A stretch of 64,000 nucleotides of DNA from a virus (IMGVR_UViG_3300035198_000053:12430-76429), one strand, 5' to 3'. Counted from the stretch's first letter, positions 4,214 through 32,976 are shown. The notes: generated by a model from the sequence alone, not told the origin. Translations and numbers: made by a program.

Positions 4214-4959
4214 AAAAGTTTGACCGCAGCGTCTCCCTGCTCTGCTGGGCATACAACGAGCAGGATTCGATTATGGAGTTTTTGGCCAGGGCCTCAAGGC
4301 TGTTGGACGAGTCGGTGAGGGATTACGAGATCATCCTGATCGACGACGGGAGTTGTGACAAGACGGCGCGGTATGCCTATTATTTTAACCGAGATCATCC
4401 GCACTCGAGGCTGAAATATTTCCGCAACGGGCGCAATCTGAACGTGGGTTTGTCCTGCCGAAAGGCGATCCAGAAGGCCTCGAAGGAGTTCCTGTTCTGG
4501 CAGACGGTCGACTGGGCGTATGACATCTCTAACCTCCGGGAGTACCTTGAGCTTTTGAAGACTTACGACATCGTCCAGGGGATGAGGCCAGGCGGGTTCC
4601 ACGTGGCACATATCCTGAAGCGCTCTGATTCTATTGGAAAAGCCGTAATCTCCCTCGTGAATTACTGGCTCATCCGCTTGTTTTACCGGGTGTCCCTCCA
4701 CGACTTCCAGAACGTGACCTTCTACCCGACGAAGTGGGCTCAGTCGATCGACTATGAGGCGACCACGTCCTTCGTCAATCCGGAGGGGCTGATAAAGTCC
4801 CACTGGGCCGGGAAGACGATCAAGGAGGTGCCGATAGGGTTCATGCCGAGGAGGCGGGGGAAGGCAAAGGGGACGAGACTGGGATTTGTGGTGAGGTCCA
4901 TGAGGGAAGTGTTCAAGTTCTGGGTGAAGTGGGTCGTCTTGAAGAGGAGGAAGCGATGA
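4210..4959 (+). CDS. GT2 glycosyltransferase, polyprenol-phosphate (DPM/GtrB-like) type; start approximate
   Basis: AYNEQ, IIIDDGS-like LIDDGSCD, N.N.G, IKEVPIGFMPRRRGKAK. Confidence 0.8.
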   Translation: MKKFDRSVSLLCWAYNEQDSIMEFLARASRLLDESVRDYEIILIDDGSCDKTARYAYYFNRDHPHSRLKYFRNGRNLNVGLSCRKAIQKASKEFLFWQTVDWAYDISNLREYLELLKTYDIVQGMRPGGFHVAHILKRSDSIGKAVISLVNYWLIRLFYRVSLHDFQNVTFYPTKWAQSIDYEATTSFVNPEGLIKSHWAGKTIKEVPIGFMPRRRGKAKGTRLGFVVRSMREVFKFWVKWVVLKRRKR

Positions 4960-5366: not shown

Positions 5367-6992
5367 ATGACCTATCTTGAAGCCGAGGCCCCCTTTCGAT
5401 TCATTCTCGGGGCGATCTTCATTTTCCTTCTCCCAGGTCTGATCTGGAATCAGGTGTTCAGAATCAGGGCGAACCATATTTTGGAGACGATCGCGCTGTC
5501 TCTGGCGACCAGCCTAGCGGTTGAAATCTCGCTGATCCCGATTCCTTTCCTCTTCCATGAGGGCGTTTGGCTGTGGCTGGCCCTGATTTCGGCTTTCTGC
5601 ATCGCTGGACTCGCGCTCCTGACCCTTAAAAGGCAAAGGCTGGCTCTTCCCTCATGGGATCTCAACTCGATTCTATTTCTTATCGTCCTGGCCGGCCTCT
5701 CCCTCTTGACCTACCGCTGGGGGGAGAGCATCGAAAGCATAGACGGCGAGAAGATCCTGCACATGACCTACATCCGGTACTACTTCTCGATGCCGATGGA
5801 GCTGTCTAGGCTTGCGGTGATCCCCGGGCAGCCCCCGGCTAATCTAATCCACCTATGGGAGTTCCTGATCGCGGGGTGGGCCACGGTCTGCAGAGTGGAT
5901 CCTCTATTCCTATTCAGCCGTTGCCGGTTTGTGGTCCCTTTCCTGGGGCTCTCTTCCATGTTTTTCATGGTGAAGATGATCTTCAAAGACAGGGAGAGAT
6001 CGGAGGTGGTATTCTGGTCGATCCTGGCGATGTGCCTGGGCTGGTTCGTGCTCCTACCCCCCTCGAACCTGGGCTGGATAACGCAGAACGACCCGCTGAG
6101 AGGCATCTTCTCCTTCATGGGCACGACCCACCATTCGGATTCTGGAATGGAGATCCTGATCTCTCTCGACGTAGGGTTGGTCCTGCTCTGCCTGAGGGAG
6201 CCGAGATGGAGGCACCTGGCCATTCTGGCCGGCACCCTCGTGGCAACCTTCATGTGGCACGCGAGGGAGTTCTTCCAGGTCGGGATATACTTGGGTGTCT
6301 TCTGCCTGGCACTTTTGTTGCATAAATCCGGAAAGATGCGCAACGGGCTAGTTATGGTCGCGTGCATCTTCTGTCTTGTCTCGGCGTTCTTTTACATTGC
6401 CTCTCCGGTGCGCAACCATTCGGATGAAATGGGGTTTAAGGTCGCGGCCTTAGCCTACGCGGTGCGGGGAATGTTCGATGTTCAGGAGCCGTTCCATTTC
6501 GCGAACGACGTAAGGCTGACCTACGGACTGAGCCGGGAGGAGACGGTGCCCTATGAGCAGCTTGTCCAGACCCGCCGTAACTCCTGGAACTTCTACCCCT
6601 GGCTTATCCTTTCCGTCCTGCTCGTCCCGGTCCTGTCGATCTTCGGGGACAGGGAGGACCGTATGCTCTGCACCTTCTACGTTCTGCTCTGGTTCATGTC
6701 CCTGATGTGGTTCTTCGGGCAGATGATGATGATCGTCCTAACGTACAGTGAGATCCTGTTCACCGCGCCGAGGATGCTCTATCTGTTCTCCTATGTGATC
6801 ATCGGGTCGGGGATCTGGTGCATGGCGAAGATGAAATACGGCCCCCTGCTCGTCATCGGGGCAGGTCTGATGTTCGGGGGGTGGTGGGCGCTCGGGGTGC
6901 CGGGGGCAAGGCAGTTCTCGCTGATAGCGCCGATATTGATGGCGGTGCCGTTTGCAAGGAGGATCAGATGGAAGATTATTGGGAACAACTAA
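5367..6992 (+). CDS. Polytopic membrane protein, probable GT-C fold glycosyltransferase (N-terminal part)
   Basis: About 13 hydrophobic segments; first large loop with D-G-E..H; lies beside a DPM-like GT2. Confidence 0.6.
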   Translation: MTYLEAEAPFRFILGAIFIFLLPGLIWNQVFRIRANHILETIALSLATSLAVEISLIPIPFLFHEGVWLWLALISAFCIAGLALLTLKRQRLALPSWDLNSILFLIVLAGLSLLTYRWGESIESIDGEKILHMTYIRYYFSMPMELSRLAVIPGQPPANLIHLWEFLIAGWATVCRVDPLFLFSRCRFVVPFLGLSSMFFMVKMIFKDRERSEVVFWSILAMCLGWFVLLPPSNLGWITQNDPLRGIFSFMGTTHHSDSGMEILISLDVGLVLLCLREPRWRHLAILAGTLVATFMWHAREFFQVGIYLGVFCLALLLHKSGKMRNGLVMVACIFCLVSAFFYIASPVRNHSDEMGFKVAALAYAVRGMFDVQEPFHFANDVRLTYGLSREETVPYEQLVQTRRNSWNFYPWLILSVLLVPVLSIFGDREDRMLCTFYVLLWFMSLMWFFGQMMMIVLTYSEILFTAPRMLYLFSYVIIGSGIWCMAKMKYGPLLVIGAGLMFGGWWALGVPGARQFSLIAPILMAVPFARRIRWKIIGNN

Positions 6993-7156
6993 TAACGGTC
7001 TGTGACAAATGTCTTACAGCTTCCTGTTGGCAAGGGCTTTTTATGTGCCGAGAATCTGAAAATGCAGGGACTATACAAAAGACAAGACTGGACTTAAAAG
7101 CACTTCATCGAGAGCATCGGTCGTACTGGAAGACAGATAGTCAATTACAAAAGTGA
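6968..7156 (+). CDS. Small Cys-rich hypothetical protein (AT-rich insert)
   Basis: MEDYWEQLITVCDKCLTASCWQGLFMC..; overlaps the end of the membrane gene. Confidence 0.55.
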   Translation: MEDYWEQLITVCDKCLTASCWQGLFMCRESENAGTIQKTRLDLKALHREHRSYWKTDSQLQK

Positions 7157-7165
7157 AAGGTATTT

Positions 7166-7567
7166 ATGAAATCTCTTAAGCTCGCAATCTTGGTCCTTAT
7201 CTTCTTCCTCCCCTCCATCGGCAAAGAATACCTCTCCATGGCCAAGCGGATGCTGACATCCCGCCCCCCCGTGGAGTGGGTGAAGAGGAGCCCGTTCGGG
7301 ATCTCGGAGAAGTCGCTCAGGTTCTTCATGGCGTTGCCTCTTGGGCAGAAGATCTTGGTCGACCCGTTCGGAAAAGACTGCGTCTCAGTCTACGCGCCGC
7401 AGTACATGGCCGTCATCCCTGAGATCATGGGGGGAACGCTGGTCGAAATGATGCCGAGATACAGGGAGTTCAGGCAGGGGAGGCCGTGGGTGAACGAGGT
7501 GGCAGATTATGTTTTCCTTCATAACAAGGAGAAGGGGGAAGTGATTATTAAGAGGGAAACTAAATGA
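7166..7567 (+). CDS. One-TM plus soluble domain; probable separated C-terminal part of the GT-C protein
   Basis: N-terminal TM then ..LPLGQKILVDP..VYAPQY; high GC like 5367-6960. Confidence 0.5.
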   Translation: MKSLKLAILVLIFFLPSIGKEYLSMAKRMLTSRPPVEWVKRSPFGISEKSLRFFMALPLGQKILVDPFGKDCVSVYAPQYMAVIPEIMGGTLVEMMPRYREFRQGRPWVNEVADYVFLHNKEKGEVIIKRETK

Positions 7568-8651: not shown

Positions 8652-8846
8652 ATGAGACCGATGCTAAAAAAAGGTGAGTCGCTTCTGATCGAGCAGGTAT
8701 CGAACGGGTTCATAGTGAATCCTCAGACGATAACAGGCCTCACGAAAATCGAGGAGGACGTACACGTCTTCCCGGACATACAGGGCCTGAGTGATTTCCT
8801 GGCAAAGCATTTTGAGCGAGATGCGAAATTGAGGATGGTGAAATGA
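8652..8846 (+). CDS. Small hypothetical protein
   Basis: 64-aa ORF coupled to the portal start. Confidence 0.6.
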   Translation: MRPMLKKGESLLIEQVSNGFIVNPQTITGLTKIEEDVHVFPDIQGLSDFLAKHFERDAKLRMVK

Positions 8847-11800
8847 ACCTGGCCTCTGGCACTCTTGACCGTCTGAGGAATCCACCCGCGATATCAGGCA
8901 AGGCCCAGACGGCCAGACCGAATGTGACCGTATCCGGCCCTCTTATCTCCTCTTATTACACCGCACACCAGGCGATAACTCCGCAGTGGCCATACTATGC
9001 CCTGGTGAATGCCTACAAAAGCTGGTGTTATACCTGTATTGACAAGGTCAGTAAGGCCGTAGCCATGGTCCCGAAAAAGCTCTACATTTACCGCCGCGCC
9101 GGGAAGAAGATGGTAGACCTGACCTGGCTTTCCTCGTATAAATTCAAAGCTGCGGGCAAGCCCCGGAGCCCCGCCGAGAAGAAATACTTCCTCAAGGAAA
9201 TGAACCTCGAAAGAGTGGAGGTGACTGAACATCCCTTCCTGGAGTTGATGAAGCGGCCCAACGCCATGATGACCCAGTTCTCCATCTGGTATGAGACCAT
9301 GGTCAGGCTTGAGCTCGGGGGGCTCTGTGGGTGGCTGAAACTTAGGGACAAACTCGGCGTGACAAGGCAGTTGTGGCCATTGCCGCTGACCCAATTCGCG
9401 CTTCTCAAGCCGAAGGTTTCCCCTACCATGGAACTGCAGTACTGGGACTATCAGGATGGTAACATCAAGCAAAGGTTCGATCCGAAAGACATTTGCCTCT
9501 TTAAATACCCGCATCCGGCTTCCCCGTTTGAGGGAATGAGTCCCCTTATGGCGCAGACCTACCCGTACGATATAGACCTCTTCCTTTCCCAGCAGCAGCG
9601 GGCACTGTTCAAGAACGGCGCCTTCCCCGGCATCATACTCAACACGGATCAGGTGTGGGGTCCGGAGCAGGTGAACGAGTTCAAGGAGCAGTTCTCGGAG
9701 CAATATGAGGGGGTAAACCGGGCGGGCGGAGTTCTTGTCGGACACTCCGGTCTAAAGTTCGAGGGCATGGCCGGGACGACCGCCAGGGACGCCATGATCG
9801 ATCGGGTGGCAAAGTTTGCCCGGGAAAAGCTGATTACCGCCTTCGACCTCAGCGAATCCAAAATCGGGTTGCAGGAGAACCAGAACCGCGCTTGCTATTC
9901 TGCTGACACTGAAACGTTGACTGAAAATGGATGGAAACTTTATAGCGAAATTGGGCCGGATGAAAAGATAGCCACATTTAATCCTGAGAATAATTATCTC
10001 GAATATCACAAACCAATTTCGAAGCATGTTTATCCTTATGCGGGTAAAATGATTCATTTTAAGACCAGGACATGTGACAGTCTCGTTACGCCCGATCACG
10101 ACATCTGGGCAAGAACGTTAATGCATACGGGAGGATTCAGGAAAATTCACGCTTCCAAACTAGCGGAACGTAATGCAAAAATGAAATTTCAGGCATGTGT
10201 TAACTACGGAGGAAGAGAGCGAGCCAAGGCTATAATACCAAATGATATAGAGATTAAAATGGATACTTGGCTTGAATTCATGGGCTATTATTTGAGTGAA
10301 GGTGGACTTTCGCATTCGACAAAACCTTATCTCCTGACTCTTTCACAAAAAGATCAGATTAAAGCTGAGAAAATCGAGGCATGTCTAAAGGCACTTCCTT
10401 TTCACTGGAAACGTTATCCTATTCAAAAAGACGGCATGACACGCTGGAATGTTTATGGCAAGTCCCTATGCCAATACCTTATGGATAACGTTGGGGGATA
10501 TTGTTTTGATAAAAGGATTCCTCGTGAACTCATGAACTTATCTCAGCGGCAATTGCGTATATTATTTGATGCCTTAATGTTGGGCGATGGATCATGGGAT
10601 ATGCGCAAGAACCGCAATTCTGGCAGCTATTATACTACATCAAAGAAGCTCGCTAATGATGTGCAAGAGTTATCATTCAAACTTGGATATTGTGTTGGTC
10701 TAATAATAAGTAGGGATAATCGCCCGAATCGTCGAAAAGTCTATCGTTTGGTAATAAGCAATCGCAAAGAACATACTCTTACGCCAAAGAGGCTTACCCG
10801 TACACCTTCCAGCATATATGAAATTGACTATGAAGGTCCAGTTTATTGTTTCAATGTGCCACATCATCTATTTATTACGCGTCGTAATGGGAAGATTGGT
10901 ATTCATGGGAATACGGCGGAGGTCATGGACGTGACCTTCGTCCGGGAGTGCATCCAGCCCAAGACGATGCTGATCGAGGAGGTCCTGGAGACCTTCTTCC
11001 TCACCGACTACGACGAGGGGCTGAGCCTCGACATGGAGTTGCCCGACTTCGACGACCGCGAGTTCAGGATGAAGGAGCGGGACTCGAATCTCCGCAATTT
11101 CTACTCCTCAATCAATCAGGAACGCGCGAAAGACGGGGAAGAGCCAGTCGAGTGGGGGGAGAAGCCCTGGATCCCCTTCAGCGTGATGCAGATGGGGGAG
11201 AAACCCGAACCCGCGCTCCCAGCTCCGGAGGCCACGGGGAAATCTATTGAGAGTAAACGCTTAACCCGCGACTTCTGGACCGAGAGGAAGAAGGACCTTT
11301 ACTGGAAGATGTTCATGCGCACGCTCGACTCCTACCAGGGCATGATTGAGCGCCCGATGAAGCACTACTTCAAGGCCCTGAGGACGGAGGTCATAAACCG
11401 CCTTCACAGAAACGCCAACAAAGTGTACGGCCAGTTCAGCGGATGGTCCCGGGCGAAGGTGGAGAAGGCGCTGAAAGAGAGCAAGGCGATTCGAGACATA
11501 AACATCACCAGAGGCGTAGAGGAGAAGAAGCTTGAATCTCTCATCACGCCGGTGGTGAAATCGATTATCGCCGATGTGGGCAGGCGCAGGATAAAGGACC
11601 TCCTGGAGTCGTACAAGCTTGCGGCTACGTTCGACGAGAGCGCGGAGAGGATCACCAAGTGGCTTGGCAATAGAATGCGGATGTTTTCCAAGGCTGTGGC
11701 CGGGACTACCTTTGACGAGATAGAAAAAATACTCAAAGAAGGATTTGCTAACGAAGATCCGGTGACCACAATAGCCAGCACTATTTCGGATAAATTCGAG

Positions 11801-12115
11801 AGTTGGGACAAATACCGGGCGCCCTTGCTTGCACGTACAGAAACTTGTGCGTCTTTTTCGTTTGCAGATCTGGAATCCGTGAAGCAATCGGGGCTAGAAG
11901 ATACACTTTTAAAGGCCTGGCTCAGTGCAAGGGACGATCATTGCAGGCCGACGCATCAGGCCGCGGATTTAAAATACAATGCCAACCCCATCGGTATTGA
12001 CGAAGATTTCGAGGTCGGTGCCGATCATATGCTTTGCCCTGGAAACGGTGAGCTTGCAGAGGAAAATGTGCAGTGCCGTTGTACACAGATCTTTGTAGAA
12101 AAAGAGGGAGAGTAA
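8843..12115 (+). CDS. Portal protein (HK97-like) with intein, fused to a C-terminal Mu gpF/SPP1 gp7-like head morphogenesis domain
   Basis: HPFLELMKRPN, GMSPL, LFKNGAFPG portal motifs; C-terminal ARTE..KAWLSARDDHCRPTH..PG..ENVQCRC. Confidence 0.9.
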   Translation: MNLASGTLDRLRNPPAISGKAQTARPNVTVSGPLISSYYTAHQAITPQWPYYALVNAYKSWCYTCIDKVSKAVAMVPKKLYIYRRAGKKMVDLTWLSSYKFKAAGKPRSPAEKKYFLKEMNLERVEVTEHPFLELMKRPNAMMTQFSIWYETMVRLELGGLCGWLKLRDKLGVTRQLWPLPLTQFALLKPKVSPTMELQYWDYQDGNIKQRFDPKDICLFKYPHPASPFEGMSPLMAQTYPYDIDLFLSQQQRALFKNGAFPGIILNTDQVWGPEQVNEFKEQFSEQYEGVNRAGGVLVGHSGLKFEGMAGTTARDAMIDRVAKFAREKLITAFDLSESKIGLQENQNRACYSADTETLTENGWKLYSEIGPDEKIATFNPENNYLEYHKPISKHVYPYAGKMIHFKTRTCDSLVTPDHDIWARTLMHTGGFRKIHASKLAERNAKMKFQACVNYGGRERAKAIIPNDIEIKMDTWLEFMGYYLSEGGLSHSTKPYLLTLSQKDQIKAEKIEACLKALPFHWKRYPIQKDGMTRWNVYGKSLCQYLMDNVGGYCFDKRIPRELMNLSQRQLRILFDALMLGDGSWDMRKNRNSGSYYTTSKKLANDVQELSFKLGYCVGLIISRDNRPNRRKVYRLVISNRKEHTLTPKRLTRTPSSIYEIDYEGPVYCFNVPHHLFITRRNGKIGIHGNTAEVMDVTFVRECIQPKTMLIEEVLETFFLTDYDEGLSLDMELPDFDDREFRMKERDSNLRNFYSSINQERAKDGEEPVEWGEKPWIPFSVMQMGEKPEPALPAPEATGKSIESKRLTRDFWTERKKDLYWKMFMRTLDSYQGMIERPMKHYFKALRTEVINRLHRNANKVYGQFSGWSRAKVEKALKESKAIRDINITRGVEEKKLESLITPVVKSIIADVGRRRIKDLLESYKLAATFDESAERITKWLGNRMRMFSKAVAGTTFDEIEKILKEGFANEDPVTTIASTISDKFESWDKYRAPLLARTETCASFSFADLESVKQSGLEDTLLKAWLSARDDHCRPTHQAADLKYNANPIGIDEDFEVGADHMLCPGNGELAEENVQCRCTQIFVEKEGE
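9893..10912 (+). mobile_element. Intein (340 aa) with LAGLIDADG homing endonuclease
   Basis: A|CYSADTETLTENGWK; block B VTPDHDIW; FMGYYLSEG and LMLGDG; VYCFNVP..IHGN|T; AT-rich relative to the exteins. Confidence 0.93.
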
Positions 12116-12201: not shown

Positions 12202-15200
12202 ATGAAAGCCATCAGACTCCTGATCGTCCTTTTTTTCACCCTAGTAGTTGCCTCGACCGGGCTAGCGGAGATGACCGACTACGGGACCGTGGATAGGAAC
12301 GTCATCTACGCCCACAACAATCCCGTGCCGGTCGGCAGGATAGAGGGTACCAGAATCATGCTGGCCTCGATCTCAGAATTCGGGTGGGCCGACTACGACG
12401 TGAAGCGCGGCGTCACAAGGATCATGACCGCAACGGCAGGGGAAGTCGGATATATGATATACGACACGCCCACGGGCAGGACGAAGATATTCATCGACTC
12501 AGCGCTGATCGGAGGCGGGGCGACTCCGGCGGGTAGCGCGAACGACATCCAGTACAACCTGAATGGCACAGCCTTGGGTGCCTACAACAAGGTAGACACG
12601 TTAGGCAACCCGGGATCTACCAATAGCATCCCGAGCGAGTATGCGGTCAGGTCCGCGATAAGCGCGTCCGGGGGCGGGACCATAGGCGGGACGAGCGGAA
12701 GCACGGACAGGGCGATCATAATCGCCAACGGGGTTGGCGGGGCGACGATCCAGTCCTCTCTCGCGCAGATAACGAGCGGCGGAGCCATCAATGCGGTCGG
12801 GGTCGTCTCTTCGGCGAGCGTCAATGCGCCGTCGTCCAGCATCGGGGCGGGCAACTACACATCTATTTCTGCGGTCAACGTTATTGTTTCCGGAGCCGTC
12901 AATGCGGCCACGGCCAGCATAGGGACGATCAACGCCACGACATACGCGGGGGTGAACGCGACCACCCTCCTCGGCAAGACCTGGGTGTCCCCGGGAGTGA
13001 TTGGGCAGACGACCCCTGCGGCGGGGAACTTCACCAACCTCGGGGCGGGCGCGTTAAATGCGACCTCCATAGTCTCGGGCTCAATGAACTCATCCACGGC
13101 GGGGATCGGGGCCGGAAATTTCACGTCCATAATATCCGGCTCCATGAATAGCTCCACGGCGGGGATAGGCTCAGGTAACTTCACGTCTGTACTCGCCGGG
13201 ACCGTGAACTCGACCAATGCGAACATAGGGGCTGGGAATTTCACCTCCGGGAACTTCGGCTCGACCTCAATAGGGTCCGGGAATTTCTCGACCATACAGT
13301 CGGGGCCGGTCGGGGGGATCTCCACCCTCATATTGCTAGGCTCTCTGAACAGCGTCAACATAACCGCGTCTGGAGCGGTGAACGGAGCCACATCAAATAT
13401 CGGGGCGGGCAACTACACGACGGTCACGGTATCCGGCTCCGGCAACTTCGGCAATGTCACATCCGGGGCTATTAACTCCACCTCGGCCATTAATGCAACG
13501 CACCTATATTCGTCGGGAGCGTCGAACCTCTCTGGACTCCTGACAGTGGCGGGCATAAACTCTACGGCTGCGGTGAATGCCCCTAGCTTAACCTCCTCAG
13601 GTGCGGTAAACGGGGCCACGCTCTATTCTGCTGGCTCCGTCAACGGGGGCGCGGCCAATTTCCAGAGCGTGAATGCTAGTAGCTCCGGAAACTTCCTGAA
13701 TGTCACGGCGGGGACTATAAACTCGACCGCGAACGTGAACGCGGTGAATCTCCTGGCCTACTCCGGCGCGGTCAACTCTTCCACGGCTAACATCGGGAGC
13801 GGGAATTTCACCTTCATAAACACGGCGGGGATGAACTCGACCGGCGCGATAAACGGTACGAACCTATTTACCTCTGGCGCGGTCAATGCGGTCAGTTCAA
13901 ATATCGGGGCGGGTAATTTCCAGACAGTGACCTCAACAGGCGCTGCTAACTTCGGGAGTGTGACGGCGGGGAGCATCAATTCTACGGGCACTCTGAATGC
14001 GGCCAACCTCTACTCCTCGGGTGCGGTCAACACGGCGACCTCGAACATAGGCGTTGGCAACTTCACGTCCGTCAAGTCGGGCGCGATCAATGGCACGGAC
14101 GTCACGGCCTCGGGAGCCCTCAACGGGGCCACCGCGAACATAGGCGCCCTCAATGTTAGCTCGATCTCCTCCAACAGCGGGTTGAACGGCCTGCTCATGA
14201 TGAACAACTCCGCTGGCGGAGTCAACGGTTTGCAGTGTGCGAACGGTAAGATCCCGAAGGTGACAAACGGCGTCTGGATCTGCAGCGACGACTCCACGGG
14301 CGGCACGCCAACCTTTGATGCCATAGCGAACGGGGTTAACATAAGCGCCGCGATGACGGTCAGCTCCGGGGCGAACCTCGGCTATGGCGGGACCGGTACC
14401 ATAAACGCGACGCATCTTCTCGGGAGCACCTGGGCCTCTCCGGGACCAATAGGAACAACTACTGAGGGTGTGGGGAACTTCACGAACCTGGGAGCCGGGG
14501 CGATCAACGCGAGCAGCGGCAACTTCGGCGCGGCCAACGCGCAGACCCTCGGTAGCGCCTCCGCCAACATCACAGGCCTGCTTTCGGTGGGAGCGATCAA
14601 CTCAAGTGCGGCTATAAACGGGACCAACATCTACAGCAGCGGAGCAGTCAATGCGGTAACGTCTAATATAGGAACCGGCAATTACAGCATCCTGAGTGCG
14701 GGGAACATGGTTATCTCCGGCAGCGCCAATATGGGGGCAGCTCAATTCGGGACTGGTAATTTTATTTCGATTTCTGGTGTAAATGCCACGATCACTGGCG
14801 CAGTAAATTTGGCGCGCGGCAACTACGGGGCGGGGAACTTCCAGACCGTCACCTCGGTTGGATCTGGCAATTTCTCGAACATCACTTCTGGGGCGATCAA
14901 TTCAACCTCGGCGATCAACGGCGCAAGCCTGACAGCGACAGGTGCGATCAACGGCGCGACTTTGTACTCGGCGGGATCGGTGAATGGAGGCGCTGCCAAT
15001 TTCCAGACGGTGACCTCGTCCGGCGCTGCTAACTTCGCCAATGTGAGTTCGGGCGCGATCAATTCCACTTCCGCGATAAACGGCGTGAACCTCTACTCCT
15101 CGGGTGCGGCCAATATAGGGGGCTTATTGACGGTTGCGGGAGTGAATTCCACCGCTGCAATAAATACCAGCACGCTGACGACCTCTGGGGCGGCCAACAT

Positions 15201-18200
15201 CGCGGGGCTTCTCACGGCTGCGGGGCTCAACTCGACCGCTGCCATCAATACCAACGTCCTTATTACATCTGGCGCGGCCAATGTCGGAGGCCTCCTGACG
15301 GCGGCTGGCCTGAACTCTACGGGAGCCGTGAACGCCACGAATATTTTTGGCTCCGGCTCGGCGAACATCTCCGGCACCGCCACCGTCGGGGCTCTGAACG
15401 CCCTTGGCGCAATCAATGGCACGAATCTCTACGCCTACTCCGGGGCGATGAACTCATCCACATCGAACGTGGGTTCACAGAATGCCACAAATATCTCCGC
15501 GACGAATATCACGGTAACGGGGACGTTCAACTCCACTGGCTCGATGAACGTTCTCAGAGTCGTCGTCCAGGGGTCGGCGAATGTCGGTAATATCACTTCC
15601 GGGGCGATCAATTCGACATCTGCAGTCAATGCCGTCAACCTTCTCTCCTCCGGTGCCTCGAACATTGGCGGTCTTCTGTCGGTGGCGGGCGTGAACTCCA
15701 CCGCAGCGGTAAACGCGACTACCCTCACGGCCTCGGCAGGGATCAATTCCGGAGCAGCGATCAACGGAGTAAGTCTTATCTCTTCCGGAGCCGCCAATGT
15801 AGGGGGGCTTCTGACTTCCGCAGGACTTAACTCTACCGGGGCTATAAACGCTCCCTACGTCGCGGCGGCAAACTACAATCTCGGCTCCGGCAACGTGACC
15901 ACGGACGGGGGCGGGAATGTCACCATCGCAAAACTGATAAACATAGGCGGTTCCAACGTCTATATGGACGCCTCCGGGAACCTGAAGGTCGCGAAGGAGA
16001 TCGGGGCCGTCAACTTCAAGCTCAGCGGCAGCGCGAACATGGCTCACCTCAATGCATCCGGTAATATCACATCAGCCCTTGTGAATATCGGGGCGGGTAA
16101 TTTGATTATGGAGCCTGGGGGCAACGTCACGATCCTGCACCTCGTGGGCGCGGGAAATATCGGCGGCACTGTCGGCACGCTTGATAGGGCCATACCCGTG
16201 GCCAATGGGACGGGTGGATACACACTGCAGGGATCGGCGGCAAGGGTTGAAAGCGATGGTGGGGTCAACATTCCTTCTGCAGCTTGCTACAAAATAAACG
16301 GAGACGACATCATCTGCGCCGGGTCTGACGGGTCGTATTACGTCAGCATCAAAAATAACACAACGTATACGGGCAGCGCCGGGAACTACAGATACCTTTT
16401 CGTGGGTGGCGTGCCGACGGTAGACTCCGACGGGACCGTGAACCCCATAGCGACGTTCAATGGGGCGGGGAACTTTTCCAGCATCGCCGTGGGCGCTGGC
16501 AACATCTCGATGGATAGCGGAGGCAACCTCACAGTTAAGAGATTTTCCTCCCTGGGTGCGACGAGTCCGGGGGCCGCAAACCTGACCACAATCAATGTCG
16601 GGGCCAACAACATCCAGATGCTTGCGGCTGGTAATGTACTCATACCCAATCTCGACGGGGCAGTCAATGCCTCGAAGCTCCTCGGCTATACCTGGACCTC
16701 TCCGACCACGATCGGGGCCACTTCTCCTGCGGCGGCTAACTTCACGGCTATGGCAGTGGGCGCGGGTAACATTTATATGCTGGCTGCGGGGAATACGTTT
16801 ATCCCGCATCTCGACGGAGCGGTAAACGCCACGACTCTTATCGGGGCCACGTGGGCCGCCCCCCCGGCCATCGGAAGCGCGACGGCTGCGGCGGCGAATT
16901 TTACAAACCTCGGGGCAGGGGCGGTAAATGCCAGCACGGCTGCGATTGCGGCTGGCAACTATGGGGCGCTCAATGCCACGACGATCACGTCCGGGACCGG
17001 GAACTTCTCCACGATAGCGGGGTCCACGAACATCGTCGTCACGGGTGCAATAAACGGGGCGACAATAATCGCCTCGGGCTCGATCAACTCCGGGGCCGCT
17101 GTGAATGCGGTAAACATCTTCACGTCCGGGGCTGCGAACCTGGGAGGCCTACTCACGGTGGCAGGGATCAACTCGACCGCTGCCATCAATGCGCCCAATC
17201 TCCTGACAGCCGGGGCGGTGAACGCAGGGAGTACGGTCACGGCGGGGGGGTTCAACACGACCGGCTCGGTCAACGCGGCTAGCCTTGTCTCTTCAGGGGC
17301 CGTGAACGGTGCCACGATCCACTCCTCCGGTTCCATCAACGGCGGGGCTGCCAACTTCCAGACGATCAACGTCTCCGGCTCAATTAATGCCACGACGCTG
17401 ACAGCATCCGGCGGGATCAACTCGTCTGCATCCATAAATGGAGTGAATCTGATCGCTTCGGGATCGGCCAACATCACGGGGACGGGGACATTCGGAGGTG
17501 TCAACAGCGGGGGAACGATCAATGCGGCCCAGTTCATCTCCTCCGGCGGGTTCAACGGGGCCACAGCAGGAATAGGGATAGGTAACTTTACCTCGATCGC
17601 CACGGCGAATATCACCTCTCCGATCATGAACTTCGGGGCCTCAAATGTGAAATTTACCGATGCAGGCGGGAATCTGACCATAGCTAAGCTAGTGGACATC
17701 GGCGGGTCGAACATAAAGATGGAGAGCGGGGGCAACACGATATTCTCGAAGAGCATCTATGCGGGCGGCAACGCGACTATAGCTGGATCAATGAATTCCG
17801 CCTCAGTGAGTACGGGGGCAATCAATGCTTCTGGGGCGGTGAATACTCTCAACCTGAGCACGGGGGCTATAAACGGGACATCCGCTCTTATAACGGGGGC
17901 GGTGAACTCGGGCTCGGTAAGCACCGGGACTGTAAACGCGACGAACGTCATCTCCACGGGGGCCGTCAACGGAGCCACCGCCAGCCTGGGCGCGATGAAC
18001 GCCTCCTCCCTCACCGTCTATGGAACGATCGGCGGCAGACTTCCGATCCTGACGAGCAAAGGCGGAGCAAATGACTTGACAGCCATACAGGTGAGCGGGT
18101 CATGGATGTACTTCACTGGGGCGGGAGTGGCGAACCTCCCGACCGCCAATGTTACCGGATACGCGATCTGCTTCGAGGCCCTAACGGGGGCCACGTCGTG

Positions 18201-18369
18201 GATTGATCCCTATGGCGCGGAGAAAATATCTCTTTCGGGGACGACCCTTGCCGCCGGAAACGCGATCCAGAACACTTCCGCGACAAGCGGGGATTTCATC
18301 TGTCTTATCTCCTCCGACGGGGCCGGAAACTGGAGAAGTGGCGGCAAAAGTGGGACCTGGGCGCAGTGA
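12202..18369 (+). CDS. Giant secreted Gly/Ala/Ser/Thr/Asn-rich repetitive fibre-like protein (2055 aa)
   Basis: Signal peptide MKAIRLLIVLFFTLVVASTGLA; beta-type repeats (GAINST, GAGNFT); 4 copies of TW.SP..IG.T.PAA.NFT; RBS GGAGG. Confidence 0.85.
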   Translation: MKAIRLLIVLFFTLVVASTGLAEMTDYGTVDRNVIYAHNNPVPVGRIEGTRIMLASISEFGWADYDVKRGVTRIMTATAGEVGYMIYDTPTGRTKIFIDSALIGGGATPAGSANDIQYNLNGTALGAYNKVDTLGNPGSTNSIPSEYAVRSAISASGGGTIGGTSGSTDRAIIIANGVGGATIQSSLAQITSGGAINAVGVVSSASVNAPSSSIGAGNYTSISAVNVIVSGAVNAATASIGTINATTYAGVNATTLLGKTWVSPGVIGQTTPAAGNFTNLGAGALNATSIVSGSMNSSTAGIGAGNFTSIISGSMNSSTAGIGSGNFTSVLAGTVNSTNANIGAGNFTSGNFGSTSIGSGNFSTIQSGPVGGISTLILLGSLNSVNITASGAVNGATSNIGAGNYTTVTVSGSGNFGNVTSGAINSTSAINATHLYSSGASNLSGLLTVAGINSTAAVNAPSLTSSGAVNGATLYSAGSVNGGAANFQSVNASSSGNFLNVTAGTINSTANVNAVNLLAYSGAVNSSTANIGSGNFTFINTAGMNSTGAINGTNLFTSGAVNAVSSNIGAGNFQTVTSTGAANFGSVTAGSINSTGTLNAANLYSSGAVNTATSNIGVGNFTSVKSGAINGTDVTASGALNGATANIGALNVSSISSNSGLNGLLMMNNSAGGVNGLQCANGKIPKVTNGVWICSDDSTGGTPTFDAIANGVNISAAMTVSSGANLGYGGTGTINATHLLGSTWASPGPIGTTTEGVGNFTNLGAGAINASSGNFGAANAQTLGSASANITGLLSVGAINSSAAINGTNIYSSGAVNAVTSNIGTGNYSILSAGNMVISGSANMGAAQFGTGNFISISGVNATITGAVNLARGNYGAGNFQTVTSVGSGNFSNITSGAINSTSAINGASLTATGAINGATLYSAGSVNGGAANFQTVTSSGAANFANVSSGAINSTSAINGVNLYSSGAANIGGLLTVAGVNSTAAINTSTLTTSGAANIAGLLTAAGLNSTAAINTNVLITSGAANVGGLLTAAGLNSTGAVNATNIFGSGSANISGTATVGALNALGAINGTNLYAYSGAMNSSTSNVGSQNATNISATNITVTGTFNSTGSMNVLRVVVQGSANVGNITSGAINSTSAVNAVNLLSSGASNIGGLLSVAGVNSTAAVNATTLTASAGINSGAAINGVSLISSGAANVGGLLTSAGLNSTGAINAPYVAAANYNLGSGNVTTDGGGNVTIAKLINIGGSNVYMDASGNLKVAKEIGAVNFKLSGSANMAHLNASGNITSALVNIGAGNLIMEPGGNVTILHLVGAGNIGGTVGTLDRAIPVANGTGGYTLQGSAARVESDGGVNIPSAACYKINGDDIICAGSDGSYYVSIKNNTTYTGSAGNYRYLFVGGVPTVDSDGTVNPIATFNGAGNFSSIAVGAGNISMDSGGNLTVKRFSSLGATSPGAANLTTINVGANNIQMLAAGNVLIPNLDGAVNASKLLGYTWTSPTTIGATSPAAANFTAMAVGAGNIYMLAAGNTFIPHLDGAVNATTLIGATWAAPPAIGSATAAAANFTNLGAGAVNASTAAIAAGNYGALNATTITSGTGNFSTIAGSTNIVVTGAINGATIIASGSINSGAAVNAVNIFTSGAANLGGLLTVAGINSTAAINAPNLLTAGAVNAGSTVTAGGFNTTGSVNAASLVSSGAVNGATIHSSGSINGGAANFQTINVSGSINATTLTASGGINSSASINGVNLIASGSANITGTGTFGGVNSGGTINAAQFISSGGFNGATAGIGIGNFTSIATANITSPIMNFGASNVKFTDAGGNLTIAKLVDIGGSNIKMESGGNTIFSKSIYAGGNATIAGSMNSASVSTGAINASGAVNTLNLSTGAINGTSALITGAVNSGSVSTGTVNATNVISTGAVNGATASLGAMNASSLTVYGTIGGRLPILTSKGGANDLTAIQVSGSWMYFTGAGVANLPTANVTGYAICFEALTGATSWIDPYGAEKISLSGTTLAAGNAIQNTSATSGDFICLISSDGAGNWRSGGKSGTWAQ

Positions 18370-18415: not shown

Positions 18416-18649
18416 ATGAAAAGATTCCTGATATTCGCATGGGTAACCCCGGTCATCATCGCCTGTGGCATTCTAGGGCTCGGCATATTCGAGGCGGGGG
18501 CCGCGAACCTCCCGTGGAAGGTGGTGGCGGGAGGAGGTACTTGTGCTGGTATATGGTACTACCGGGACAGCCACGGCCTGCAAGTTAGCAGTCTACCAAT
18601 ATACCGGCTCAGCGGGGTACACTCAAAGGACGCGAGAATAAGCTATTGA
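18416..18649 (+). CDS. Short signal-peptide protein (possible collapsed cassette remnant)
   Basis: MKRFLIF..EAGA-ANLPWKVVAGGG; RBS GGAGG; C-terminus SGVHSKDARISY. Confidence 0.55.
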   Translation: MKRFLIFAWVTPVIIACGILGLGIFEAGAANLPWKVVAGGGTCAGIWYYRDSHGLQVSSLPIYRLSGVHSKDARISY

Positions 18650-18669
18650 CAAATGAAAGGAGAACCGGA

Positions 18670-19020
18670 ATGAAAAAACTACTCGGGATCATCTTTATTC
18701 TGTCGTTACTATTCGTCGGACAGGTGTATGCCGCAAGTCTTCAGTGGACAGCATCCACAGGGGCGGCAGGGTATCAGGTCAGCTACAAGACCCTTGCGGC
18801 CACCACCTACACGGTTGTAGACGTAGGCAATGTGGTTCAATGGACAATCCCGACTACTCTGGTAAAGGGGACCCGGTACGAGTTCTTTGTGAATGTCTAC
18901 GCGGGAACGCCAAAGTCTTACTCTGGAGACTCGGATCATATTCGGTGGACGATGCCTAGAGATCCAGTGATCATCGAATTACCGGAAGGCCCGAACACCA
19001 TCATTCTAAACATTCCGTGA
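18670..19020 (+). CDS. Secreted fibronectin type III-like protein
   Basis: Signal peptide ..GQVYA-ASLQWTAS..AGYQVSY..L..GTRYEFFV. Confidence 0.75.
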   Translation: MKKLLGIIFILSLLFVGQVYAASLQWTASTGAAGYQVSYKTLAATTYTVVDVGNVVQWTIPTTLVKGTRYEFFVNVYAGTPKSYSGDSDHIRWTMPRDPVIIELPEGPNTIILNIP

Positions 19021-19028
19021 GGTGAGAC

Positions 19029-19757
19029 ATGAAACTGAAATCTCTGTTCCTTATATTCTTAATGGTCGGTTTGTGCCAGTTAAGTCTGGGTGCCGTCATT
19101 GAAGTCCCTGAGTCCATAGGGGCCGGTATCATGATGATAGGAGGGGGGGCTCCGGCGGCAGCGGGTCAGACCTTTATGATCTCCGAAGATTTAGAGGGAG
19201 CAAGCACCTGTTACACGGGCGATGTTACGTTTATAAATTGTAATTTACCAGCAGCTAAATGGACCACATCGGGGAGCCCACTTTTTAAGCACAATGGAGG
19301 TGGATTGCTAGAAGGAAGTTATTCCTTAGATTGCACTGATGGGAGTGTAACAGGTTCAATAAGTCCAGCGCAGAGTAATTTCTTTTGGTTCTTTGAGTTT
19401 ATGGGTACTCCCAATGATCAAGATATTTTCCAGATCAAGGATGCATCTGATAGTTTTGTTTTCACTTTGTCAGAATTATATGCAGGCACTTTCGGAGTTT
19501 GGGATGCCGTAGCCGGTAGCCATAGTACTGGATTCACCTGTGCTTCCAGTACTAAATACTATATTTGGGGAGAGTATAAAAACGGGGCCAGTGGATACAT
19601 AAAGATCTATGTTAGTATCACCACCACTAAACCAGCAGCATATACACTGGCTACAACGAATGCCAACACCGCAGCGAAAATGATTCTGCTCGGTGGTTTC
19701 TTTGACCGTATCAGGGTTTCTACAACTGACATTACAGGTTATCCGACTTACCCATGA
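19029..19757 (+). CDS. Secreted lectin/beta-sandwich-like protein
   Basis: Signal peptide MKLKSLFLIFLMVGLCQLSLGA; Cys pairs; FFDRIRVS C-terminal strand. Confidence 0.6.
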   Translation: MKLKSLFLIFLMVGLCQLSLGAVIEVPESIGAGIMMIGGGAPAAAGQTFMISEDLEGASTCYTGDVTFINCNLPAAKWTTSGSPLFKHNGGGLLEGSYSLDCTDGSVTGSISPAQSNFFWFFEFMGTPNDQDIFQIKDASDSFVFTLSELYAGTFGVWDAVAGSHSTGFTCASSTKYYIWGEYKNGASGYIKIYVSITTTKPAAYTLATTNANTAAKMILLGGFFDRIRVSTTDITGYPTYP

Positions 19758-19763
19758 GGTAAT

Positions 19764-22271
19764 ATGAGAAAGACACTTCTTTTCCTTCTTGCAATCATTT
19801 TCATTCCTCAAACGGTCCTTGCTACCTCCTGGTATCTCGACAATGCCGCTACTGGTTCAAACAATGGGACTTCATGGACCAATGCGTGGCATCACCCTGA
19901 ACATATTGTTTGGGGAAGTTCCGGGGTTAAAGCAGGAGACACCTTGTTCATTTCAGGTGGAACAACTTCAAAGACCTACATTGTCGATAGAGATCAATGG
20001 TTAAGTGTAGATGCAGGGGGAACCAGTGATGCAAACCGGATAATCATTAGAATTGGTCAAGATTCAGGCCACAACGGTACTGCCATCATTGAGATGGGGG
20101 GAAATCGCGTTCTAAATGGGGCAGGAGGATACAATCAAGCAATTCGACTCAACGGACACAACTGGATAACTATCGACGGTGAGTACGGTGGAGCAAGACA
20201 CATTACCATTCAGAACGTAAAACTTATCGGGCCCTACGATAGTAGCTACGGGAATATTGCCATCCATTCAGCAGGAGGCGTCGGTATCACTATAAAAGGA
20301 GTGACGATTTCCACATCCGACACAGGGATATATTACACCAGTAACAGTGATCCAGGCTCACCATATTTTGCGCTCGAAGTGAACAATTGCTCCATTACTG
20401 ACATTAGATCACAAACGGCCATCTATTGCGTTGCAGCAGGTATTGCCCCCAGATACGATGTTGTCAGTATCCACAATTCTACAATCAGTGTCAACCATAC
20501 AACGGGAGCCGATTGGGATGGACCTGACGGTATTCAAGTCGGTCACGGATTAACATTCTATAACAATACGATTTATGCGGTATCTGATACTGATAATAGC
20601 AAAACCTACGGATGGAACGGCATATCGGGGTGCCTCATAGCCGATTGTCCCCCAGGTTCTGGCAATTGGTGGCAACATCAAGACCTAATTCAGTATGGCG
20701 GTAGAAATATTAAGGTTTACAATAATTACATGGCCGATGGAGCTAATTCGGCTATGTCTGTTGATAGGTACGAACAGTACGATGATGGTTTTCTGCGTAT
20801 TTACAATAATGTTATCCAATACAGTTATCAGCGTGGGACTCAGCCTTTACAGATTGGTTTTAACAGTGGTAATCCAACTCTGATTACAGATGTATTGATT
20901 GTCAATAATACGTTTGCTGATTGTTCAGGGTATATCGTTGGACAAGGAGTGGATTGTGCAACTGGGGTAACATTAAACGCTTATAGATTTCAGAATAACA
21001 TCATGGTGAATGCAACGGCAGAAAACGTTGGGTGTTGGGCAGCGGGATGCGTTACAACGGGTGTAATAACTGGATACAACGTAACGTTTCCTGGATCGTG
21101 GGGAACAAATGAGGTAGCCGTAGGAGGAGAGAGCTGTTGGTATCAACCTGCAACAATCTCTCACAGTTTGCCCGCATTCTCTCCGACTGCTTACACTGGA
21201 CCATATTCGCTAACGAATACTGGATTTAGGCTCTCTGCAAGCGATACGGTAGCCAGGGGAACGGGAGTAAATCTAACTTCTCTATGCACGAGCCTGAGCG
21301 AACCCGCCCTATGTATGGACAAGGATGGTGTTGCCCGTCCCGCGTCAGGGGCCTGGGACATCGGGGCGTATCAGTATGGGGCAGGCGAACCAGACACAGA
21401 CCCTCCTGTGATGTCGAATCCTCTTCCCTCTGGACAGCAAACTTGTTCAACAGGATGTTTAGAAACTCCGTTCATAGATCACTCAACCGGAATCAATGAC
21501 TGGCGGAACATGGGTGATACAGATGCAAGACGATATCTTGGGTTTGCTTACACTCCAACAAATGATCTTTCTATCTGTAAAGTGACGTGGCAACCTAGAC
21601 TTTTGGGTGGCAGTCTTGACGGAAAAACATTCTACACTGAGATATGGGACGGGTCCGGAGGGACCACGTTGCCTGCGAATCCGATAACGAATGGAAGCGC
21701 AACCGTCTCTTGTACTGGTAGTTCGTGTGCATGGGGAACTGGGACTGCTGTTGATTTTACATGGACCTCAAACTACCCCCAGATTTCATCAGGAACCCAG
21801 TATTATTTCACAATGAGTCCTCACGGGACTGATGCGAGCAATTATAGCGGATTAAATACAAACACCAATGCCACAGGCTATACATTCATTCGGTGGACAA
21901 GCACAAAAACCGTAGACACAACTGATTCAAACGAGATCGAGTACGTTAAGGTGTATAATTATCAGGCCAGCAATGCCATACCGATTACCCTGGAACTGAC
22001 TACGGATGAGGCGGCCACTTGTAAGTATTCCACCTCCGATGTTTCTTATGATTCAATGGCGTATACCTATTCGTCTACGGGCGGCACAACCCACACGCAA
22101 GCCTTAACGGGGTCTTGCGGAAGTTCTTACGTTTATTATAGTCGGTGTATGGATGGGTCAAACAACAAAGATACCAGTTCGGCCACAACTTCATTCTCAA
22201 TCGCAGGGGGAACAACCCCCATTACGCCTGTAAGCGGAGTGCATATAAAGGGCGGGGGAGTAAACTATTAG
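19764..22271 (+). CDS. Secreted parallel beta-helix protein with extra C-terminal domains
   Basis: Signal peptide ..QTVLA; WYLDNAATGSNNGTSWTNAW; YNN/NNT ladders; DKDGVARP..AWDIGAYQY; many Cys. Confidence 0.8.
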   Translation: MRKTLLFLLAIIFIPQTVLATSWYLDNAATGSNNGTSWTNAWHHPEHIVWGSSGVKAGDTLFISGGTTSKTYIVDRDQWLSVDAGGTSDANRIIIRIGQDSGHNGTAIIEMGGNRVLNGAGGYNQAIRLNGHNWITIDGEYGGARHITIQNVKLIGPYDSSYGNIAIHSAGGVGITIKGVTISTSDTGIYYTSNSDPGSPYFALEVNNCSITDIRSQTAIYCVAAGIAPRYDVVSIHNSTISVNHTTGADWDGPDGIQVGHGLTFYNNTIYAVSDTDNSKTYGWNGISGCLIADCPPGSGNWWQHQDLIQYGGRNIKVYNNYMADGANSAMSVDRYEQYDDGFLRIYNNVIQYSYQRGTQPLQIGFNSGNPTLITDVLIVNNTFADCSGYIVGQGVDCATGVTLNAYRFQNNIMVNATAENVGCWAAGCVTTGVITGYNVTFPGSWGTNEVAVGGESCWYQPATISHSLPAFSPTAYTGPYSLTNTGFRLSASDTVARGTGVNLTSLCTSLSEPALCMDKDGVARPASGAWDIGAYQYGAGEPDTDPPVMSNPLPSGQQTCSTGCLETPFIDHSTGINDWRNMGDTDARRYLGFAYTPTNDLSICKVTWQPRLLGGSLDGKTFYTEIWDGSGGTTLPANPITNGSATVSCTGSSCAWGTGTAVDFTWTSNYPQISSGTQYYFTMSPHGTDASNYSGLNTNTNATGYTFIRWTSTKTVDTTDSNEIEYVKVYNYQASNAIPITLELTTDEAATCKYSTSDVSYDSMAYTYSSTGGTTHTQALTGSCGSSYVYYSRCMDGSNNKDTSSATTSFSIAGGTTPITPVSGVHIKGGGVNY

Positions 22272-28465: not shown

Positions 28466-29085
28466 TGGAATCCAGGCTCGACTACTGGGAGAACCGATAC
28501 AGGAAGCAGGGATTAAAGACTGTGGGGTGTTGCTCCTTTTCTGAATCCCAGTTTCAAGCTAAGACGGGTGCCGTCATGGATATGATCCGCCCCACGCTTG
28601 AGCCGATATTCCGGGGGAAGACAGTTTTGGATTTCGGGTGCGGATGGGGCAGACTAAGCAAGATGCTTTTTGCCTTCTGCCACTCCGTCTACGGGATAGA
28701 TATCTCCCCGTGGGCTATCAGGCAGGCCAAAAACCACTCACCCGGCTGTGACTTCCGGGACTATGACGGGGAACATATACCCTTTGGAGACGGTTGCTTT
28801 GAGGGTTGCCTATCATGGACGGTTTTGCAGCACGTCCCCCCGGAACAGATCGGGAAGACATGCGGGGAGATTTCGCGCGTCCTCGGCAAAGACGCCCATC
28901 TTGTTATTTATGAGAATGTATCGACTTGGTGCGAGGATATGACACATGTCTGGTTCAGAAGGCCGAAGGACTACATGATGCTGTTCGAACAATTCCGGGT
29001 TGAACGGGAAACCATTGTCAAGGACTTCGACGGAACCGGGGAAAACCATGTTTTGATGGTCCTCAGAAGGGGGGATGGGAAATGA
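28462..29085 (+). CDS. Class I SAM-dependent methyltransferase
   Basis: VLDFGCGWGR, GIDIS, TVLQHV. Confidence 0.9.
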   Translation: MMESRLDYWENRYRKQGLKTVGCCSFSESQFQAKTGAVMDMIRPTLEPIFRGKTVLDFGCGWGRLSKMLFAFCHSVYGIDISPWAIRQAKNHSPGCDFRDYDGEHIPFGDGCFEGCLSWTVLQHVPPEQIGKTCGEISRVLGKDAHLVIYENVSTWCEDMTHVWFRRPKDYMMLFEQFRVERETIVKDFDGTGENHVLMVLRRGDGK

Positions 29086-30505: not shown

Positions 30506-30608
30506 CAAGCGCGCCATGGAGCAGGCGTGGCTGAAATCCTTCGAGCAGAACTACAAGAAGAAAGAGCCGTTCGTGCCGAGATTCCAGGAGGGGACGGGGG
30601 ATGGATGA
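30459..30608 (+). CDS. Small basic protein
   Basis: MKRTKQRRKP..; RBS AAGGA; bridges to the next gene. Confidence 0.4.
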   Translation: MKRTKQRRKPIDRRFDKRAMEQAWLKSFEQNYKKKEPFVPRFQEGTGDG

Positions 30609-31839: not shown

Positions 31840-31894
31840 CGGGAGAACTCGACAAAATGATCTTTCACACTGCTATTATACGCCGCTGAAAGGC

Positions 31895-32975: not shown

Positions 32976-32976
32976 C

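Follow-up and report, generated by a model that had tools for sequence, protein, structure and literature searches.

A giant, probably exported fibre-like protein of a sediment phage, whose many N-x-S/T motifs may mainly reflect a structural asparagine repeat

The usual view of tailed phages is that their structural proteins are synthesized and put together inside the cytoplasm, and the T4 fibre proteins gp12 and Wac, which are assembled there, are not glycosylated. In the HMW1/HMW1C system of Haemophilus, a large, Sec-exported, beta-helical adhesin is modified at N-x-S/T motifs (sequons) which carry no acidic residue at position -2; canonical PglB requires D/E-x-N-x-S/T. Freeman et al. are said to have found in 2023 that the glycosyltransferases (GTs) of mycobacteriophages act within the cytoplasm of the mycobacterial host, where they modify capsid and tail-tube proteins. 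The subject of this study is P0001, a fibre-like protein of 2055 amino acids (about 2033 in its mature form) encoded at 12202..18369 of a 64,000-nucleotide stretch (the window) of the IMG/VR viral contig IMGVR_UViG_3300035198_000053. The contig is 76,429 bp long and about 61% complete according to CheckV, which bounds every negative result on the contig given below; all its genes lie on the plus strand, and so do all the features listed here. An earlier note, made from the DNA alone, had proposed that P0001 is a heavily N-glycosylated, mucin-like fibre. We assign instead a probability of about 0.55 to the reading that the siphovirus-like phage, an uncultured one from sediment, encodes in P0001 a genuine giant fibre- or adhesin-like protein built on a structural Asn repeat.

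Like the T4 fibre shafts (gp12, gp34/gp37), P0001 has long, all-beta repeats rich in Asn, Gly, Ser and Thr, and the TINGTLRINNTLTIASGGANITGTVNMTG segment of gp12 was matched by its repeat profile. The sequon enrichment of the T4 fibres is comparable (ratios of 1.5–1.6), and P0001 also has a viral-looking non-repeat distal domain. Unlike the T4 fibres, it has a Sec signal and a position in the head-gene block, its Asn content is 11.7% instead of 7–10%, and its sequon density is two to four times higher.

HMW1–HMW1C and the trimeric autotransporters modified by N-glycosyltransferases (NGTs) provide the chemistry that dense N-glycosylation of P0001 would need. However, no GT41 NGT (PF13844) was found in the contig, and P0001 has no TpsB partner, autotransporter barrel or Pfam similarity. 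The PglB systems of Campylobacter and Desulfovibrio also resemble P0001 in that their substrates are exported and carry N-x-S/T, but the phage differs from them. Neither STT3 nor PglB was found in the 76-kb contig (Pfam, six frames); the same contig yielded none of the genes of an en-bloc pathway (Bac_transf initiating phosphoglycosyltransferase, Glycos_transf_4, Wzx flippase, Wzy_C-type ligase/O-oligosaccharyltransferase); and none of the 99 sequons of P0001 has D or E at -2.

The count of roughly 100 sequons, about one per 20 residues, which had been made by hand, is accurate: P0001 contains 99 N-x-S/T motifs (x not P), 69 NxT and 30 NxS, one per 20.8 residues. Composition predicts 55.4, and 2000 shuffled sequences gave a mean of 55.7 (sd 6.3, maximum 76), so that the enrichment over shuffled sequence is present, with a z of 6.9. 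The observed/expected ratio is 1.81; the same script gives 1.59 for gp12 and 1.53 for Wac. The repeats had been described as nearly charge-free, and D, E, K and R indeed make up 4.0% of the whole protein, while Ser and Thr account for 23.4% (481 residues). The quoted motifs were recovered as well, with seven copies of SSGAANIGGLLTVAG.NSTAAIN, three of GA.NGATLYSAGSVNGGAANFQ and four of SP..IG.TTPAAG.FT, one of which begins with AP.

The comparison with other offsets qualifies this enrichment. At +2, 41% of the Asn residues have Ser or Thr, but the value is 42% at -5, 37% at +3 and 34% at -4. As Ser and Thr are as frequent at other offsets as at +2, the excess is a property of the repeat and not of +2 alone.

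The repeat itself is 27–28 residues long, and an iterated hidden Markov model (HMM) recovers about 20 units that are nearly complete; the main blocks lie at 13444..15867 and further units at 17134-17547 and 17890-17961. The consensus is A-N-phi-G-G-L-L-T-x-A-G-phi-N-S-T-A-A-phi-N-A/G-T-x-L-x-S-S-G, with a super-period of 28 residues (11 + 17). The asparagines at positions 2, 13 and 19 are invariant (4.32 bits), inside and outside sequons alike; the motif around the first of them, A-N-phi-G, is mostly not a sequon. After N13, Ser at +1 scores 3.20 bits and Thr at +2 3.17 bits; after N19 the values are 3.03 bits at +1 and 2.16 bits at +2. To our knowledge, oligosaccharyltransferases (OSTs) and NGTs put no constraint on +1. 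Conservation of +1 at the level of +2 therefore points to asparagines placed at the turns of a structural repeat. The DNA copies of the repeat are only 60–77% identical, which indicates an old pattern kept by selection and a sequon count that is not inflated by recent duplication.

A search of the PDB with the repeat profile gave a single, weak match (E 0.12), the TINGTLRINNTLTIASGGANITGTVNMTG segment of the T4 gp12 short-tail-fibre shaft, which is itself dense in N-x-T and which we take to be part of the triple beta-helix of gp12. The repeat HMM run against the T4 fibres returned nothing significant. A single-sequence AlphaFold2 (AF2) model of residues 901–1310 has a predicted local distance difference test score (pLDDT) of 48, too low to read the orientation of the asparagines. 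Judged from these sequence features, the sequon density seems best explained by an Asn-cornered structural repeat, and the hundred or so N-x-S/T motifs would on balance follow for the most part from the repeat consensus, with its phi-N-S-T and phi-N-(A/G)-T, and would not be the result of selection for N-glycosylation.

Comparisons with other exported proteins agree with this. The proteins exported alongside P0001 show no sequon enrichment (observed versus expected: 0 vs 0.8, 0 vs 1.5 and 13 vs 12.1). Relatives without signal peptides would be poorer in sequons on the reading of the earlier note, but the two groups do not differ: the ratio is 1.27 in relatives with signal-like N-termini (n=17) and 1.12 in those without (n=21), with p = 0.79. 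A near-identical variant of P0001 occurs in a second sediment-metagenome study, so that the gene is now found in the metagenomes of two. The covered fragments differ by 14 single-nucleotide polymorphisms (SNPs), seven synonymous and seven nonsynonymous, of which T1462I abolishes one sequon; 14 SNPs are too few to test sequon conservation.

P0001 is probably exported, as far as its predicted features tell. A GGAGG ribosome-binding site lies 9 nt 5' of the ATG, which makes for a strong start at M1, and residues 1–22 (12202..12267, MKAIRLLIVLFFTLVVASTGLA) form a Sec-type signal peptide, assigned by eye, with a predicted cut before EM. The n-, h- and c-regions are recognizable, small residues occupy -3 and -1 (G-L-A before the predicted cut), and the best hydrophobic 10-mer scores 3.34 on the Kyte–Doolittle (KD) scale. 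The six cysteines form three local pairs (679/694, 1362/1372 and 1990/2034), the first of which is kept in seven relatives. These pairs, like the close Cys pairs of an 835-residue neighbour, fit extracytoplasmic disulfides.

The signal is followed by a non-repeat region (12268..12801) with the motifs DIQYNLNG and TDRAIIIANGVGG, whose nearest ESM Atlas clusters are 100% viral (score 0.88, a lead only). A first copy of the fibre module (VNATTLLGKTWVSPGVIGQTTPAAGNFTNL) lies at 12952..13047. The best-conserved module, at 14119..14526, comprises the Cys679/Cys694 loop, FDAIANGVNISAAMTV and INATHLLGSTWASPGPIG...GNFT, and copies 3 and 4 (…WTSPTTIGATSPAAANFT… and …WAAPPAIGSATAAAANFT…) are found at 16657..16917. 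The protein ends with a non-repeat domain of 121 residues (18004..18366) which holds the Cys1990/Cys2034 pair. As leads only, the nearest ESM Atlas clusters of this domain are also 100% viral (score 0.95), the nearest named ones being a phage depolymerase C-terminal domain and T4 gp9/10 N.

P0001 is almost without full-length relatives. Searches of Pfam, PHROG and PDB sequences with the whole protein gave no match, nor did tblastn against 50,697 GenBank phages, where the best-conserved module alone reached at best E 0.6. Scans of IMG/VR with P0001 and with the capsid protein of the phage found no close relatives. A word-indexed search of 5.8 billion proteins returned two weak matches, and an exhaustive search of 1.84 billion representatives returned 51 weak ones, each of which aligns by way of short modules and never by way of the Asn repeats. 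The shared module reads C-x-NG…W-x-C…FD-x-I-x-x-G-x-N-x-[ST]-A-A-M…INA[ST]-x-L-x-G…P-x-x-IG…G-x-FT and includes a conserved N-x-S/T; over 14119..14526, P0001 is 41% identical to P0002, 46% to P0003 and 52% to P0020. The module occurs on 25 IMG/VR loci and is absent from the cultured phages searched. P0001 thus shares modules with proteins of viral contigs, as a phage fibre should. Canonical Sec-like signals with AxA-type sites are present in 9–11 of the 25 module-bearing open reading frames (ORFs), whose sequon density is ordinary (pooled, 338 vs 293 expected).

The gene is the first of five consecutive signal-peptide genes that lie in the interval between portal-MuF and protease-capsid. Its upstream neighbour encodes a portal fused to MuF (8843..12115), and the protease region (23398-25785) and the HK97-type capsid gene (25864-27258) follow downstream, which places P0001 inside the head-gene block. 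The four other genes with Sec-like N-termini, recognized from their translations and hydrophobicity, span 18416..22271 (18416-18649, 18646/18670-19020, 19029-19757 and 19764-22271). The last encodes a protein of 835 residues with a canonical signal peptide, 19 cysteines, most of them in close pairs, and NN-x-hydrophobic motifs, which recur as they typically do in parallel beta-helices. Although it has no sequence match in Pfam, PHROG or the PDB, it may be a secreted depolymerase-like enzyme. The idea that these genes form a moron-type transcription unit found no support: promoter and terminator scans were at background, and the intergenic folds had z values of -0.2 and -0.1.

Similar loci exist elsewhere. 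IMGVR_UViG_3300036884_000163 has five consecutive Sec-like ORFs at 5198-16762 (1847, 230, 1564, 93 and 152 residues), the first of which carries the fibre module of P0001. In IMGVR_UViG_3300045391_001814 (3239-10828), the order is TerL, portal, a signal-bearing ORF of 646 residues with the fibre module, and MuF. The portal/fibre-module ORF/MuF order is the same head-block slot as that of P0001, in an unrelated phage.

The favoured reading implies the following steps. P0001 would be translated from the head-gene block, its position there being observed and the timing presumed. It would be exported by Sec with removal of the 22-residue signal, as its sequence, its four signal-bearing neighbours and the three local Cys pairs suggest. 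It would fold into a long beta-structured shaft, solenoid or triple-beta-helix-like, with the three invariant asparagines of each unit at turns or corners; repeat conservation and the weak match to the gp12 shaft point to this. More speculatively, lysis may free or expose P0001 as an adhesive or shielding fibre, which might join virions or cell surfaces outside the cytoplasm. Modification by the GT2 and GT-C enzymes of the phage, or by its soluble GTs, is possible.

The glycan genes of the phage fall into two sets. Set I lies between terminase and portal and encodes a DegT aminotransferase, two radical-SAM/SPASM enzymes, an AsnB-like amidotransferase, WbqC, an RmlB-like dehydratase, a GT2 and a membrane protein, P0004. 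The GT2 (4057..4959; Pfam Glycos_transf_2, E 1.5e-13) resembles polyprenyl-phosphate sugar synthases. Its best PDB sequence matches are weak (ArnC 1.8e-5, DPMS 9e-4, GtrB 3.6e-3), and its KFDRSVSLLCWAYNE motif is common to the GT2 enzymes that adjoin cellular copies of the GT-C gene. The split GT-C-fold enzyme (5367..7567) consists of P0004, a polytopic protein of 541 residues with 12 hydrophobic segments (5367-6992), and a C-terminal piece of 133 residues (7166-7567). The split was mapped by tblastn, and a similar one (575 + 221 residues) occurs in a metagenome-assembled genome (MAG) of the Thermodesulfobacteriota (L002, 3881-6284). The family is unannotated and without Pfam match; its members have about 800 residues and are mostly single proteins.

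The AF2 model of P0004, built from the family alignment, has a predicted TM-score (pTM) of 0.83. Foldseek places STT3, AftA, DPY19, PglB and AglB first, with TM-scores of 0.37–0.45. VIA-align gives Z values of 13.2 for AglB, 12.7 for AftD, 12.6 for STT3B, 11.9 for ArnT, 10.1 for DPY19, 9.3 for PglB and 9.0 for Pmt, and the alignments with AglB, AftD, STT3B and ArnT each exceed 300 residues. The modelled fold of P0004 is GT-C, on which the two independent aligners agree. The family has no match to Pfam STT3 (PF02516), and the WWDxG motif is not conserved: WWD occurs in 3 of the 16 members, and the phage copy has WWALG. The WWDQG of a Nitrospirae homologue was considered as an OST motif and rejected, because the motif is not conserved. 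An acidic residue follows the first transmembrane segment (TM1) in 14 of the 15 homologues, where the phage copy has Gln.

The GT2 and GT-C genes are adjacent, a pairing that cellular loci also keep. Synteny extends over the whole cassette, which has counterparts in cellular clusters of Thermodesulfobacteriota, Nitrospirota and other MAGs, near which there is no giant fibre; the syntenic stretches are L001 9528-13499 plus window 1-7567, L006 3563-12295, L002 45-7588 and L003 844-7695. The shared order is DegT, radical SAM, AsnB, WbqC, RmlB-like, GT2, GT-C and a small membrane protein. This synteny makes set I look like a captured cellular envelope-glycosylation pathway, and the lack of a giant fibre in the cellular clusters favours an envelope acceptor, in the style of Arn or Gtr. 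The phage resembles the three-component Arn (ArnB/ArnC/ArnT) and Gtr (GtrA/B/C, including phage seroconversion modules) systems of envelope glycosylation in its DegT aminotransferase, its NDP-sugar dehydratase, its GT2 with weak matches to ArnC, DPMS and GtrB, and its polytopic GT-C. It differs from them in that the family of its GT-C is unannotated, that a GtrA-like flippase was not recognised, and that the cassette adds two radical-SAM/SPASM enzymes, AsnB and WbqC and shares its gene block with exported proteins.

Set II (27296..33909), in the capsid-to-tail interval directly after the capsid gene, is a cluster of soluble glycan enzymes: a GT1-like enzyme, a methyltransferase, a rhamnosyltransferase-like enzyme, a GT2 and a GT9, four of them being glycosyltransferases. 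It could act on capsid or tail proteins, on the fibre before export, or on DNA. Soluble GTs in a structural block next to the capsid gene are also a feature of mycobacteriophage virion glycosylation (Freeman et al. 2023, as cited in PMC12582341); that system is not known to involve an exported fibre or a GT-C enzyme. The O-heptosylated adhesins AIDA-I and TibA are modified by an enzyme of the BAHT family (TibC/Aah), whereas the PDB matches of the phage GT9 are the lipopolysaccharide (LPS) heptosyltransferases WaaF and WaaC, TibC not being found at E <= 1. A C5-cytosine DNA methyltransferase lies among sugar genes upstream of the window (L001, 7138-8421). No TET/JBP dioxygenase was found in the contig, and glycosylation of 5-hydroxymethylcytosine (5hmC) in its DNA is not evident. 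Within the otherwise soluble set II, an ORF of 250 residues (29082-29834) has a Sec-like N-terminus (MKRWIAVVLMILVWTSFSYA).

Several observations weigh against a purely structural origin of the sequons. Glycan genes take up a large share of what the phage encodes, and among the structures compared with its GT-C enzyme the best alignments are to AglB and STT3B, tied with AftD and ArnT. Asn occupies the variable position of all four G-x-FT motifs of P0001, and the statement of the earlier note that T, A or S is found there in phage fibres holds for 53 of the 57 motif copies collected from relatives by the exhaustive search (A 36, T 13, S 4, K 2, N 1, V 1); four of four against 1 of 57 would also fit selection for N-x-T. 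The same is true of the preference for Thr over Ser at +2, with a T/S ratio of 2.3 compared to 0.3–0.9 at most other offsets. With 4.8 sequons per 100 residues, P0001 is also about three times as dense in them as any relative. In addition, the structural reading does not explain the route of a 2000-residue fibre across the outer membrane, given its predicted export, nor any membership in the virion. That P0001 is glycosylated in some way is a serious possibility, if somewhat short of even odds, since the phage carries a GT2/GT-C pair and a cluster of soluble GTs of its own.

The rival that survives best, although we consider it unlikely, is glycosylation off the sequons, with single sugars on the 481 Ser/Thr or on other residues and the sequons incidental. 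It could proceed in the periplasm, where GT2 and GT-C would transfer a polyprenyl-phosphate amino-sugar in the manner of PMT or DPY19, or in the cytoplasm before export, through soluble GTs, as with AIDA-I/Aah or mycobacteriophage virions. The abundance of Ser and Thr in P0001 is consistent with it, as are the presence of Pmt and DPY19 among the structural matches and the location of the GT2/GT-C pair, which shares the head-proximal block with P0001 and lies 5' of the upstream neighbour of P0001, the portal gene. The place of set II directly after the capsid gene is an arrangement linked to virion glycosylation in mycobacteriophages (Freeman et al., through PMC12582341). However, nothing links any GT directly to P0001, and cellular genomes have the cassette without such fibres, which argues for an envelope acceptor (LPS, lipid A) as in Arn or Gtr. 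The resemblance of the GT9 to LPS heptosyltransferases and not to TibC, and the Gln that replaces the acidic residue after TM1 of the phage GT-C, also speak against it, and the soluble GTs could instead act on capsid or tail proteins or, with a C5-methyltransferase nearby but no TET/JBP found, on DNA.

Dense N-glycosylation of an exported P0001 on its sequons, by a relaxed host PglB or by the phage GT-C as a novel type of N-glycosyltransferase and giving a mucin-like glycan shield, is improbable. The number of sequons, the Thr bias at +2, the Asn in all four G-x-FT motifs, the signal peptide and the similarity of the GT-C model to AglB and STT3B, with STT3 first in Foldseek, all count in its favour. 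The background on which the earlier note relied is also sound: the PglBs of Desulfovibrio glycosylate the minimal N-X-T (PMC4894442). Among the sampled genomes of candidate host phyla, STT3 is over the cut-off in 53 of 301 Thermodesulfobacteriota (18%) and 15 of 301 Nitrospirota (5%); capsid relatives, at 33% identity or less, were found in 8 of 301 Thermodesulfobacteriota and 1 of 301 Nitrospirota. An N-linking OST in the host is thus possible, but would be a minority trait, and none was seen in five MAGs that carry the GT-C family, which are incomplete. On the phage side, the six frames contain no Pfam STT3 and the WWDxG motif is not conserved, AftD and ArnT are statistically tied with the OSTs, and the adjacent GT2 looks like an ArnC/DPMS-type synthase of a single-sugar donor, with no en-bloc pathway genes found. 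The conservation within the repeat is not specific to sequons, the exported neighbours and the signal-bearing relatives are not enriched, and no fibre gene lies near the GT-C clusters of cellular genomes. What stands of the earlier description is therefore a real ORF with fibre modules, dense in sequons and probably secreted. Its heavy N-glycosylation is not supported, given a structural repeat, a density unrelated to signal peptides, unenriched neighbours and a contig in which no STT3/PglB or GT41 was found.

Equally doubtful is a reading in which no export signal is cleaved from the hydrophobic N-terminus and P0001, without glycans, is an ordinary fibre of the virion (head, neck or extra tail) which trimerises in the cytoplasm like other phage fibres. 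The phage-fibre modules, the terminal domains near viral clusters only, the structural gene block, the weak gp12 shaft match and the half or so of the relatives without signal-like N-termini speak for it. Against it stand the textbook n-h-c arrangement, with G-L-A ahead of the predicted cut, and the strong ribosome-binding site at M1, equally canonical signals in four consecutive neighbours and 9–11 of 25 viral relatives, and cysteines present only as local pairs.

The favoured reading, a structural Asn repeat in a genuine giant fibre, warns against reading glycosylation from the sequon counts of repeat proteins. We regard as a long shot that the phage has its own periplasmic protein-glycosylation system, in which the amino-sugar pathway would work together with the polyprenyl-phosphate GT2 and the GT-C enzyme of a new family, with the five exported head-block proteins as natural substrates. 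If this were true, no other protein known from prokaryotes or viruses would be as densely glycosylated as P0001, whether on Asn or on Ser/Thr. P0001 might then join virions only after lysis, an extracytoplasmic step in the morphogenesis of a tailed phage, and a GT-C that modifies proteins would be a new enzyme family for glycoengineering. The fibre with its export signal, the four exported neighbours, the GT-C cassette and the similar loci elsewhere suggest a class of extracytoplasmic phage proteins, such as adhesins, shields or late-attached decorations.

The rest of the contig has a siphovirus-like layout. The gene order starts with terminase, followed by portal-MuF, P0001, the protease region and the HK97-type capsid; further genes encode an Ig-domain major tail protein, a J-like central fibre, RecT, a helicase and a DnaD-like loader. 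The portal contains a LAGLIDADG intein-like insert at about residues 346–760, which also matches intein-bearing genes of other phages. An HNH/endonuclease VII-like gene (22362-23411) separates the protease gene from the exported cassette. A tail protein of 558 residues (39785-41461) begins with an Mtd_N domain (major tropism determinant N-terminal, E 5e-16), which is followed by a weak pectate-lyase-like match.

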